From an uncultured Alphaproteobacteria bacterium (GTDB lineage: Bacteria > Pseudomonadota > Alphaproteobacteria > CAAHEQ01 > UBA3637): a DNA stretch of 64,000 nucleotides. The notes beneath the pieces were generated by a model. That model saw nothing but the letters and a program-made list of their open reading frames with translations. It did no database searches and had not been told where the DNA came from. This document shows, in pieces, positions 10,056 to 12,869 of this stretch. Every line of letters starts with the position of its first letter. Within the stretch, counting starts at the first letter, position 1. The stretch is taken from assembly GCA_944392125.1 (NCBI GenBank), contig CALXVP010000001.1, positions 4,325 to 68,324 of the forward strand, read 5' to 3'. Both the position numbers and the translations under genes were made by a program.

Positions 10056-12869
10056 TCAGTTCAACCTGATTTTACACGTATAACCCGTAATCACGCCATC
10101 GGCATTTGTAGAAGCAACAGCCTCGCGATTATCGCAACTATTGCATAATGCAACGGATTCGCTATCCATCCCGATAGCACGATTCCCACCCTCGCCACAT
10201 AACAAGCAATTTCCGTTGGAATCTTGCCACAAGCCAGGCGTGCATTCTTCCACACATTTTGCCGTGAGATTATTTGTTGAGGCATTACCAAGCGTCATTT
10301 CACGCCGATTATCGCAAGAATCGCAAAGATTATCTTCATTCGGATTAACGGCTACATTCTTTTCCGAGCAATCCCGACACGTATTATTTTTATCTAAAAA
10401 CTGGTGTGTTTCTTCGCATTTGCCGTATTGGCACAACCCGTTGCTATACCGTCTGTTTGCGCATAAATTGCATTGTGCGACTCCGGCACCCGGAGACACC
10501 TTTTCATCGGAACAAGAATAGCATTTATAATCGTTTCCACGAAATAATTCGCCATCATGATCGCCGTCAAGATAAGACTTAGCCTTAGCTTTGATATCAT
10601 CATTCAAATTATCAATTAAAGGTCCATCCAGACTACTGCATACCCCACTGATTCCGGGATCTATTTTATAACAATCACCATTTACTGACATTCTGTTTCC
10701 GCAAGCAATACATGAAGAGATAGCATTAGAATTAGTGTTTACTCGAACACTGCCACTATTTGAGCACAAGAAACAAGTTCCATCTGTATTTTTAAAATAC
10801 AAGTTATCTGAAGGGCACCATTTTGATGCACAATGCAATCGATCGGTTACATATGCATCGCGAGAATCTGAACAAATCTCTTCACACTCATCTTCTACTA
10901 ATGGATCAAAAACATCATATCCACTACAACTTCTGCAAAAACCATCATTTCTATGAATTTGTCCTTCGGAACATTTAGGAACACAGTACAAAATTCCTTG
11001 GGTTGATCTTTTTTTAATTCGTGTTATTTTTGAATTTTTACAATTTTCTTCGCATGATACATCATCTTCGGATATTGCAACCCCCGTATTCCTTGTGCAA
11101 GGATAACACTTTCCATCTTTCCCACTAAATTCGCCTTCAGCACATTTTTGTTTAAGGACACAATAGCTCGTTTCTGCATTCAACTCAACAACCTCTCTGC
11201 CACACGCCTCACACAATTGTCTTGCTGTTTCATCTTGGGTATAGATAGTGTTGACGCTTGTATTATCGTTACATGGTAAACATTTTCCACTATTATTTTG
11301 CCATAAACGATTACAATTTGCAGGATCATCACATGTTTGCGGAGAATCTTGTGGTTGAGTGCACTCAATGCTACAATACATTTCTCCCTGTAGCGATATA
11401 CGCGCCTTCCTATTAGGACATTTATTGCACAAATCCACAAAATAATCCATTTGATTATTGGATGAAATTGAATGAATTTCAACTATATAAGATTTTGTAT
11501 CCGCCTCACAAGGGATGCATTTTCCTGTATTAACCTCCTGAAATTCGTTAATTGAACAACTTGATTTCGAGTTACACATACGTAAATTATGTCTTGTCCA
11601 CCAGAATCTATCCTCGCCACAAGCTAAACACTGGGCTTTTGAAACCGCATCACCGCTGATGGTATGCGGTGTTTTATCCGAACAAGGCACACAGCCCGCA
11701 CCGTCGCTTGCTTGATACGTATATCCGTTTGTGCAAGCGTAAGAGCAATACGCTTTTTCATCATCCACATCACCGCTGTATCTTGTCGGATTTTGGCATA
11801 ATGCACATTGTTCCAATCCTGATTTACCGTCTCTGAAACCCAATGCCGGATTTTCATAAATTGTTTTACTTACCAAAAAGTTATTGGGATTATCGCACGG
11901 CACACAAACTCCGTTCGGCGTGCGGAATTCTTCCCCATCCACACACGCTTCCTCTATCCGTTCGCAGGTATGCGTTATTTCCGAACACGTGTATTGTGAT
12001 CCCTTGCTCGCGCAGTCCGACGGCTCTAAACACTCCACACAACTGCAACTTTCTTGCAAACAATATGGCCTACTTGCATTCCCCGTGCACGCATCTTCAC
12101 ATGTCAATGTATCGCCGTTGCAAACGGGCGTTCCGCAACAGGAACTGCAATCACTCTCTTCCACGCAATTTTCATTGATTAACGAATCCGATTCACTATT
12201 CAAAAATATCGTAAACACCATTTCATTTTGAGCACTTTCACTCACCTCTCCGCAGATAGATACATCGCCCATATATTTGACATCATTCACCTGCACAAAC
12301 TGCAATCCCTTAATCACATCTATCAACGGCATATTTAATACTTGCCGACAAATTCTCGGGCTCACTTCTTCCACATATATCTTTACCGCCACATCCGGCT
12401 TTGATTCCATATAAATCGGAAAACCCGTTCCCGTTACCGTCGGATACTCCGGAAAATCCGTCTCTTCATCTTCGTTCGGATACGGCAACGGCATTTCTTG
12501 ATACCGATGCCATACATCCGTTGCCCTTAAATTCACTTCATATACAATATCGTTTGACCGATATTTTTCCATGGCATACCGATAGCCTGTAATGCCCGCA
12601 ACCGACAACACACCAATCACCGCCAATACGCCCAGCATTTCTACCATACTCCGCCCGTATTCGGCTAAATACATACCCCTTAATCCGTTCAATCTGGATT
12701 GAGGTTTAATTTGTCCCGAATATTCCGCTTTTTGATTGTTTTTCAAGCGCGTGAGGCTATTTTGATTCGCTGATTTTATCTCTTGTTTTGCGCGATTCGC
12801 CTTAAATTCCCCGTTTTTTGCTTTTTGTGCATAAAAAGAAGCCACGTTAACTATTTGTTTTATTTTCAT
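10056..12869 (-). CDS. Giant cysteine-rich protein with a type-IV-prepilin-like N-terminal domain (paralog A)
   Basis: The N-terminal region reads ...AEYG|RSMVEMLGVLAVIGVLSVAGITGYRYAMEKY. That is Gly, then Glu at +5, then about 20 hydrophobic residues and YxY, the class III (prepilin) signal pattern. The rest is about 750 aa with roughly 10 repeats of (D/N)GxCxxC-x12-18-CxxC(G/D)(N/E)R. The start was moved to the ATG at 12869 (MKIKQIV), which is preceded by a GGGGAGAAG RBS. The ORF-track Met at 12884 lies inside that RBS. Confidence 0.6.
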   Translation of the reverse strand: MKIKQIVNVASFYAQKAKNGEFKANRAKQEIKSANQNSLTRLKNNQKAEYSGQIKPQSRLNGLRGMYLAEYGRSMVEMLGVLAVIGVLSVAGITGYRYAMEKYRSNDIVYEVNLRATDVWHRYQEMPLPYPNEDEETDFPEYPTVTGTGFPIYMESKPDVAVKIYVEEVSPRICRQVLNMPLIDVIKGLQFVQVNDVKYMGDVSICGEVSESAQNEMVFTIFLNSESDSLINENCVEESDCSSCCGTPVCNGDTLTCEDACTGNASRPYCLQESCSCVECLEPSDCASKGSQYTCSEITHTCERIEEACVDGEEFRTPNGVCVPCDNPNNFLVSKTIYENPALGFRDGKSGLEQCALCQNPTRYSGDVDDEKAYCSYACTNGYTYQASDGAGCVPCSDKTPHTISGDAVSKAQCLACGEDRFWWTRHNLRMCNSKSSCSINEFQEVNTGKCIPCEADTKSYIVEIHSISSNNQMDYFVDLCNKCPNRKARISLQGEMYCSIECTQPQDSPQTCDDPANCNRLWQNNSGKCLPCNDNTSVNTIYTQDETARQLCEACGREVVELNAETSYCVLKQKCAEGEFSGKDGKCYPCTRNTGVAISEDDVSCEENCKNSKITRIKKRSTQGILYCVPKCSEGQIHRNDGFCRSCSGYDVFDPLVEDECEEICSDSRDAYVTDRLHCASKWCPSDNLYFKNTDGTCFLCSNSGSVRVNTNSNAISSCIACGNRMSVNGDCYKIDPGISGVCSSLDGPLIDNLNDDIKAKAKSYLDGDHDGELFRGNDYKCYSCSDEKVSPGAGVAQCNLCANRRYSNGLCQYGKCEETHQFLDKNNTCRDCSEKNVAVNPNEDNLCDSCDNRREMTLGNASTNNLTAKCVEECTPGLWQDSNGNCLLCGEGGNRAIGMDSESVALCNSCDNREAVASTNADGVITGYTCKIRLN

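Follow-up and report, generated by a model that had tools for sequence, protein, structure and literature searches.

What kind of protein begins like a type IV prepilin and then runs on for about 700 residues rich in cysteine (Cys)? The question is raised by gene A (paralog A), which lies in a 64,000-nucleotide stretch of DNA from an uncultured Alphaproteobacteria bacterium (assembly GCA_944392125.1, contig CALXVP010000001.1, positions 4,325 to 68,324; this whole stretch is called the window hereafter) and which an earlier note, made from the sequence, had described as a giant Cys-rich protein with a class III (prepilin peptidase) signal. On the evidence given below, the product of gene A is probably a modular type IV pilin with a IVb-type structure, and our analysis points to a pilus-presented adhesin or variable surface protein as its most likely nature. 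The parts of the gene are as follows (strand in brackets).

10056..12884 (-): paralog A, full open reading frame (ORF) from the open reading frame list, 942 amino acids (aa) and stop, intact
12654..12869 (-): basic leader peptide, residues 6-77, with 14 K/R and 4 D/E, its last residue being the invariant Gly77 (-1)
12504..12653 (-): mature alpha-1 helix, residues 78-127, RSMVE(+5)MLGVLAVIGVLSVAG..., whose hydrophobic alpha-1N passes into an amphipathic alpha-1C
12168..12503 (-): globular pilin head, residues 128-239, predicted as a sheet of four strands plus two short helices; Cys179 and Cys211 are conserved
11925..12167 (-): Cys-dense linker or "knot", residues 240-320, 15 Cys, predicted local distance difference test score (pLDDT) of ~70
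10059..11924 (-): ten tandem Cys-rich modules, residues 321-942, 61 Cys

A predicted type IVb-like pilin module

The N-terminus quoted in the earlier note agrees exactly with the translation, which reads ...YLAEYG77/RSMVEMLGVLAVIGVLSVAG, with Arg78 at +1 and Glu82 at +5 (the slash marks the predicted cleavage site). The class III signal proposed for it is borne out at the level of the motif as well, as Gly(-1), Glu(+5) and a hydrophobic helix of ~20 residues are all present and invariant in the homologs. Conservation was assessed on 59 full-length homologs sharing 32-70% identity with A. G77 is invariant in 59/59 of these and in every full-length family protein retrieved, and Gly(-1) and Glu(+5) are both invariant in more than 100 homologs. 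The residues G77, E82, L84, V86-A88, G91-L93, Y101, A104, and M105 do not vary in the 59 proteins, the alpha-1N segment MLGVLAVIGVLSVAG is nearly invariant among family members, and about 60 Cys columns are also invariant. Since G77, E82, and these ~60 Cys columns are kept in such divergent homologs, the prepilin-like motif and the Cys pattern are well beyond chance. The domain of ~150 aa that had been seen after the helix in both A and paralog B of the window could be aligned in B and in every family member.

Neither full-length A nor paralog B gave an above-threshold match in Pfam or NCBIfam, and the type IVb pilin families of Pfam, PilS (PF08805) and Bundlin (PF05307), were not matched by the family. 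Fragments carrying the family N-terminus are annotated by JGI as PilE or FimT. A profile made from the first ~170 residues of 36 diverse members was searched against 177,635 distinct PDB sequences, and all ten matches obtained at E ≤10 (10/10) were type IV pilins, with TcpA first (E 0.0019), CofA second (E 0.02), and then PilA, geopilin, and fimbrial proteins. The alignments with TcpA and CofA span more than 100 residues and run through the "...F-x-I-x-V-x-x-V-P-x-x-V-C-K-x-x-L" strand-helix that bears Cys179.

Structure prediction with AlphaFold2 (AF2) leads to the same group of proteins. The domain model (pLDDT 89.4, predicted template modeling score 0.79) consists of a 56-residue helix, continuous from 2 to 57, then four strands plus a pair of short helices, and thus shows the long alpha-1 on a four-stranded antiparallel sheet by which the pilin fold is recognized. 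Its best structural matches were CofA of a type IVb pilus (score 9.8), TcpA (8.5), and Clostridioides difficile PilA1 (7.8), then Salmonella Typhi PilS (7.7), plasmid PilM (6.0), and CofB (5.7), with PilV, PilE, TcpB, and GspK ranked lower. The full-length model gave the same ranking. Traits of the type IVb subclass are found in the sequences too, namely a residue other than Phe at +1 (here Arg), leaders of 8 to at least 72 aa and the conserved Cys179/Cys211 pair. Residues 78-239 are hence, as modeled, a type IVb-like pilin module.

Start codon and leader of gene A

The first ATG of gene A lies at 12882-12884 (-), followed in frame by those of M6 (12867-12869) and M71 (12672-12674); the end coordinate 12869 used in the earlier note is that of the second in-frame ATG, M6. 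The leader would be 72 aa long with a start at M6 and 7 aa long with a start at M71. A Shine-Dalgarno (SD) sequence, GGGGAGA, stands 7 nucleotides (nt) 5' of the M6 ATG, an arrangement kept in paralog B and in orthologs, whereas a start at M71, which would give a textbook 7-aa leader, has no well-spaced SD. The frame across the 72-codon leader is uninterrupted in the whole sublineage, orthologs included. Between A and its ortholog at locus L001, the leader shows 83% identity and zero indels, with 11 non-synonymous and 6 synonymous substitutions, numbers too small to choose the start codon. In the AF2 model, the leader region has a pLDDT below 50. In other sublineages, leaders of 8 or 19 aa occur, and many full-length members have a canonical 8-aa leader, MQTKMNEI-G. 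We favor M6 as the likely translation start of gene A, short of proof.

Gene A is flanked by murA on one side and by an unknown gene adjoining RNase J on the other. The ORF directly upstream of it, at 13185-14033 (-), had no significant Pfam or NCBIfam match.

An unclassified Cys-rich extension

The protein contains 78 Cys in total (8.3% overall), fewer than the ">90" first counted, and their share reaches 10.8% in the final 703 residues. The description of about ten tandem CxxC-type modules was otherwise accurate, with ten units from residue 321 preceded by the 15-Cys linker, in which C240, C246, C262, C266, C282, C285, C291, C300, C307, and C314 are invariant among the 59 homologs. Each module is 48-84 aa long and most have six Cys, in the pattern (D/N)GxCxxC - x13-29 - CxxCxNR - x9-19 - C-x3-5-C; the last units are less regular. 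The full-length AF2 model, computed from a 59-sequence alignment, has a mean pLDDT of 82, exceeding 90 over residues 320-940, and the Cys-rich region is predicted to be made up of short hairpins and short helices.

The modules also fall outside described families, as searches of Pfam, NCBIfam, and PDB remained without a match. With E values up to 1 allowed, paralog A had no hit in either Pfam or NCBIfam, a set of 43 diverse members showed no recurrent Pfam family at E up to 0.1, and a phmmer search of the Cys-rich region against PDB matched nothing. The models for Giardia variant surface proteins (VSPs), furin-like domains, GCC2_GCC3/Ephrin_rec_like, EGF, and zinc ribbons gave no significant match to the Cys modules. 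We therefore regard the repeat as an unclassified domain that is confidently modeled.

An exhaustive HMMER search of residues 320-942 against 1.84 billion cluster representatives (E ≤0.001) returned only 59 proteins, and nearly all the full-length ones among them bear the family pilin N-terminus. Three Cys-module proteins (P0322, P0323, and P0327) carry an ordinary Sec signal peptide in its place, which argues for a location of the modules outside the cytoplasm.

A large family in uncultured gut Alphaproteobacteria

To describe the family, one genome per GTDB species was scanned; at least 599 stretches matched, and 562 of them could be confirmed. These family genes, at least 562 in number, come essentially all from metagenome-assembled genomes (MAGs) labeled as uncultured Alphaproteobacteria of the gut, with human (Hadza, Nepal), rabbit, yak, buffalo, sheep, goat, and deer hosts. 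Two matches were found outside Alphaproteobacteria, in MAGs labeled Acidaminococcaceae and Lactobacillales, and are probably mis-binned contigs.

The 79 loci retained contain 104 family ORFs, often in tandem arrays, with mature lengths from 113 to 1632 aa; one MAG, SIG53, has at least 15 family genes. Many family genes are severed at contig ends (L016, L018, L028, L060, L078, and others), and the databases contain many entries that cover just 40-100 aa of the N-terminal part. As near-identical 5' ends of paralogs break short-read assemblies, copy numbers per genome are underestimated. The family is among the most expanded gene families that we encountered in these uncultured gut Alphaproteobacteria.

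Not all members are giants. Distant members have the same carrier fused to teneurin-type EGF, FGE-sulfatase, or Ephrin_rec_like domains, and the same MAGs that hold the giants also encode small members of 113-148 aa (mature), sometimes clustered in groups of two to four genes.

L034 16034-18212: four adjacent small pilin genes, 120-131 aa
L049 8933-10206; L030 9974-10423; L076 23-493; L045 2545-3039: small members, genes of ~140-160 aa

With a short leader and the alpha-1N of the giants, and with a C-x12-16-C loop at the C-terminus, the small members look like ordinary major pilins, and this resemblance makes them candidate major subunits of a filament system.

Paralog B and the block shared upstream

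A six-frame motif scan of the window found a single other gene with the N-terminus of A, paralog B, and a copy of the non-coding region that precedes A was found in front of it.

46799..49363 (-): paralog B, 854-aa ORF, with its Gly(-1) codon at 49127-49129
12856..13065 (-): conserved non-coding block of A, a putative promoter/5' leader of ~210 nt, with the SD GGGGAGA at 12876-12882
49290..49490 (-): upstream block of paralog B, a copy of that of A

B has the leader end, the alpha-1 helix, and the pilin head of A, and differs in its Cys modules; its mature part contains 76 Cys. Over the whole length, A and B share 26% identity (BLASTP E 2e-36), with near identity from AEYG/RSMVEMLGVLA to ~45 residues beyond. 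The two upstream blocks are ~90% identical, a conservation that exceeds that of the coding sequence. In A, a 12+12 palindrome at 12885-12910 abuts the first ATG (TCTACATAAACG-GA-CGTTTATGTAGA, given also as TCT(T/A)CATAAACG-GA-CGTTTATGTAGA), and in the block of B the two arms of a 20-nt inverted repeat (49310-49329 and 49469-49488) enclose 139 nt. The block recurs in unchanged orientation before family genes at unrelated positions in assemblies of other species (L001, L013, L014, and L092-L094).

An invertible promoter was considered, since the block looks the part, yet 8/8 copies from five assemblies have the same orientation relative to their gene. This uniform orientation provides no evidence of inversion, and the block was therefore treated as what it may well be, a shared promoter/operator; switching is only an idea.

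Processing and assembly machinery in the lineage

The window, the one part of its genome that the analysis covered, holds no gene for a prepilin peptidase or for filament machinery. We thus turned to related loci, using motif scans for T2SSE and A24 over 80 sources (1.18 Mb) and hidden Markov model (HMM) scans around the matches and the family genes, which yielded one peptidase, one ATPase, and nothing else. When the 57-aa N-terminus was used by itself as a query, all matches were short fragments at contig ends, which agrees with a breakage of assemblies at this repeated sequence, and the machinery was not located in this way.

L058, on one contig with a family gene that lies 6 kb away: Peptidase_A24, 234 aa (PF01478, E 1.6e-14)
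L065 16482-18365, 5 kb from a family gene: T2SSE-family ATPase, 627 aa; further loci L083 9404-10966 and L088-L090

The A24 peptidase has 165 homologs of about 228-236 aa and a fixed, purely housekeeping setting (dnaG-rpoD, A24, rodZ, prfA, prmC, efp), which makes it a core gene of the lineage. Only its A24 domain was matched, with no methyltransferase domain found in Pfam, and a peptidase of this make-up would fit an unmethylated Arg at +1.

The ATPase adjoins rimP-nusA-infB and has an N-terminal extension of ~300 aa of proline-rich repeats. Its closest solved relatives are DotB (1.4e-20) and PilT. More distant metagenomic relatives (26-33% identity) lie between genes for PilS-type (PF08805) and PilV/Shufflon_N (PF04917) pilins, which is the setting of a type IVb thin pilus, on apparent mobile elements with a Strawberry-notch-like helicase nearby.

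A proposed route to the cell surface

By analogy with known prepilins, the gene A precursor would enter the inner membrane via alpha-1N, with its basic leader on the cytoplasmic side and all that follows the helix on the other. The A24 peptidase, an enzyme family conserved in the lineage, would then cleave after Gly77 and expose Arg78. The modeled pilin module may dock into a type IV filament through Glu(+5) and alpha-1N, the body of this filament being formed by the small pilins (113-148 aa mature) with the same alpha-1N. Because the C-terminal extension of ~700 aa cannot fit in the filament body, the gene A product would sit at the tip or act as a primer, as do CofB, TcpB, and PilV. The linker and modules would probably form a fully disulfide-bonded, protease-resistant array facing away from the cell, with a ligand-binding or antigenic role. 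With many paralogs per genome, the carrier would remain constant and the displayed module would differ, the promoter/5' block being common within this species group. In the gut, such a repertoire could supply the bacteria with different adhesins or surface variants, possibly used to attach to host or partner cells.

Several observations weigh against a pilin of this kind. The only Pfam match of the isolated N-terminus is PF07963 (N_methyl), with 13.9 bits for a cut-off of 21.2, and TIGR02532 reaches 12.0 bits for a cut-off of 16.3, so that the N-terminus does not pass the pilin sequence models that the earlier note had proposed for checking it; both matches are in register and best for the N-terminal fragment, and PpdD-type pilins are among the few NCBIfam matches. 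To our knowledge, Arg at +1 is not found in characterized pilins, and we know of no prepilin leader approaching the 72 aa that a start at M6 would imply. The family genes are dispersed among housekeeping genes and do not lie in pilus operons. The ATPase is nearest to DotB and could thus belong to a type IVB secretion system, and a type IV coupling protein is indeed encoded in the window. Non-exhaustive motif scans and targeted HMM scans of the window and of the 1.18 Mb of related loci found no platform protein (PilC/TcpE type), secretin, or PilMNO, which is why the association of gene A with a pilus is one that we infer. Finally, of the three reduced-genome gut lineages in a recent survey, only one was reported to have type IV pilus genes, and it is not Rs-D84, for which none were given (PMC12306168); this would count against a pilus if our lineage is Rs-D84, an identity that is unverified. 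Its assignment to the order Rs-D84/Ca. Enterousia is plausible as a lead only, with a fit in habitat and literature and no overlap in accessions.

Filament, anchor or metal-binding array

The first alternative takes the pilin module as a sorting or anchoring device only, in the absence of any pilus. Alpha-1N would then hold the protein in the inner membrane or in short pseudopilus-like stubs, with a periplasmic or envelope-spanning Cys array, much as class III signals are found on archaeal sugar-binding proteins. Several of the observations above are of the kind expected from such a device: the missing platform and secretin in the scanned loci, the dispersal of the family genes among housekeeping genes, a peptidase that is a core gene in a housekeeping context with dozens of substrates and that has the A24 domain alone, with no N-terminal methyltransferase match in Pfam, and the high diversity of cargo domains on a single carrier. 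Against it stands the invariance of Glu(+5), a residue required for filament assembly and not for cleavage. All members moreover keep a complete and well-conserved pilin head, some are of ordinary major-pilin size, and the lineage has a PilT/DotB-type ATPase. On balance, we consider an anchor without a pilus doubtful, though it deserves serious attention, and retain a type IVb-like modular pilin as the probable identity of the gene A product.

A second alternative concerns the cargo, whose CxxC pairs could be metal-binding knuckles of the zinc-ribbon or rubredoxin type in a pilin-anchored metal or redox array. The 20 CxxC motifs of gene A are indeed paired at a spacing of 13-29 residues, mostly at predicted beta-hairpins. 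However, most modules contain six Cys rather than four or eight, with C-x3-5-C as their third pair, and zinc-ribbon and other metal-binding families were not matched. The domain is moreover extracytoplasmic on a prepilin and occurs behind Sec signal peptides as well, the number of Cys in the mature part is even in 99/108 homologs, and His is scarce (1.1%). From this placement, the even counts, the modules behind Sec signals, and the scarcity of His, we conclude that the Cys modules are probably disulfide-bonded rather than metal-binding, and a metal or redox array appears very unlikely.

That the N-terminus is an ordinary uncleaved signal anchor, prepilin-like by chance and unrelated to pilins, would agree with the sub-threshold motif HMMs and the atypical Arg at +1, but it is hardly credible given that the likeness runs ~160 residues past the motif into the pilin fold, that Gly(-1) and Glu(+5) never vary in hundreds of genes, and that type IVb pilins are the top matches both of the PDB profile and of the AF2 structures, which disfavors the plain signal-anchor named beforehand in the earlier note as an outcome that would speak against its claim.

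Other genes in the window

An ATP synthase operon at 51871-58826 (-) has the gene order of an N-ATPase ("alternate F1F0"), namely beta, epsilon, AtpQ-like, AtpR-like, a, c, b, alpha, gamma. Its best models were TIGR03305 (beta, 716 bits, just under the exception cut-off), TIGR03322 (c), and TIGR02230 (above the cut-off), and an E-S-T...Y motif seen by eye in the c subunit suggests Na+ coupling. A set of effector-like genes is present as well.

40965-43202 (+); 6942-7868 (-); 39225-40955 (+); 27120-28937 (+): effector-like set of a type IV coupling protein and pentapeptide-repeat, ankyrin-repeat (PF12796), and MORN_2-repeat proteins

The coupling protein (PF02534, E 2.8e-36) is an orphan that adjoins a pentapeptide-repeat protein, with no other type IV secretion genes in the window. 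As judged from the sequences, the set fits a host- or partner-associated lifestyle. The adjacent paralogs at 24433-25629 (+) and 25795-26949 (+), of ~390 aa, resemble a GNAT acetyltransferase domain in their C-terminal part when inspected by eye. The ORFs at 29031-30752 (-), 4758-5528 (-), and 20955-21470 (-) had no significant match in Pfam or NCBIfam, the first of them giving only a sub-threshold match to the metallopeptidase DUF6782.

Comparison with known systems

Much of the versatility of type IV filaments is owed to what their minor pilins display. Modular pilins, in which further domains are grafted onto a pilin module, are an established and widespread class, with more than 1,200 members in the survey of Raynaud et al. 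2021, which required the IPR012902 signature, and with Streptococcus sanguinis PilB (vWA module) and PilC (lectin module) as examples (PMC8179133). Gene A has the same construction, with a class III signal and a small predicted pilin module (78-239) carrying a bulky, unrelated C-terminal module (240-942), and its relatives carry EGF, FGE-sulfatase, or Ephrin_rec_like domains. It differs from them by a carrier that is IVb-like and escapes an IPR012902-type signature, by a cargo that is an undescribed Cys repeat array, by a family size of at least 15 genes in one MAG, and by the lack of a pilus operon context in the loci found. As the motif models remain below threshold, signature-based surveys of modular pilins would probably miss this family.

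Among type IVb pilins, CofB of enterotoxigenic Escherichia coli and TcpB of Vibrio cholerae are known as large minor pilins. They measure 390-520 aa and carry beta-repeat and beta-sandwich domains, in contrast to the Cys repeats found here, and their genes are single-copy in the cof and tcp operons, beside the machinery, whereas the family genes are dispersed and multicopy. Hence, the combination that the earlier note did not recognize from described proteins is unfamiliar in its Cys modules, which match no described family, and less so as an architecture, given that modular pilins are established (PMC8179133) and that CofB and TcpB are known examples of large minor pilins of type IVb. With CofA, TcpA, and the PilS proteins of S. 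Typhi and R64, identity is only 9-17%, and gene A has in addition the Arg at +1 and the ~700-aa extension.

A parallel in logic is PilV of R64/IncI plasmids, in which a constant N-terminal pilin part is joined to alternative C-termini that set binding specificity, and ATPases related to the T2SSE ATPase of the lineage adjoin PilS/PilV genes. There, the variation is produced by a shufflon; here, it resides in many separate full-length genes, and PF04917 (Shufflon_N) was not matched in A or in the 43 diverse members.

The design principle is therefore already known from modular pilins, CofB, TcpB, and PilV. New features are the cryptic IVb-type carrier, with Arg at +1 and a leader that may be very long, the Cys-rich module that fits no known class, the extent to which the family has expanded in this uncultured gut lineage, and the dispersal of genes that have a common upstream block. 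The proteins are obvious candidates for attachment to hosts or partners in a gut lineage that is widespread in humans, rabbits, and ruminants and whose biology is essentially unknown, and they could serve as handles for antibodies, enrichment, and cultivation.

The last comparison is with the VSPs of Giardia, another gut dweller, whose large multigene set of CxxC-rich and presumably protease-resistant surface proteins combines a conserved anchor with a variable ectodomain. The analogy is functional only, as there is no detectable homology (no Pfam match), and the anchors differ: that of the VSPs is a C-terminal transmembrane segment with a CRGKA tail, and that of gene A is the N-terminal pilin module. 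A far-reaching joint reading, which we hold to be improbable as a whole, would see here a bacterial counterpart of these protozoan proteins, in which a repertoire of dozens of disulfide-rich, protease-resistant ectodomains on a divergent type IVb-like filament would serve small-genome gut Alphaproteobacteria both for attachment to partner or host cells and for surface variation, its expression would be coordinated or switched via the strongly conserved upstream block of ~200 nt with its palindrome and inverted repeats, and the carrier, with its Arg at +1, very long leader, non-methylating A24 peptidase and no recognizable platform or secretin, would belong to an undescribed minimal filament system. 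Should the arrays prove to be protease-resistant and variable, they would represent a parallel to the Giardia VSPs in a bacterium.

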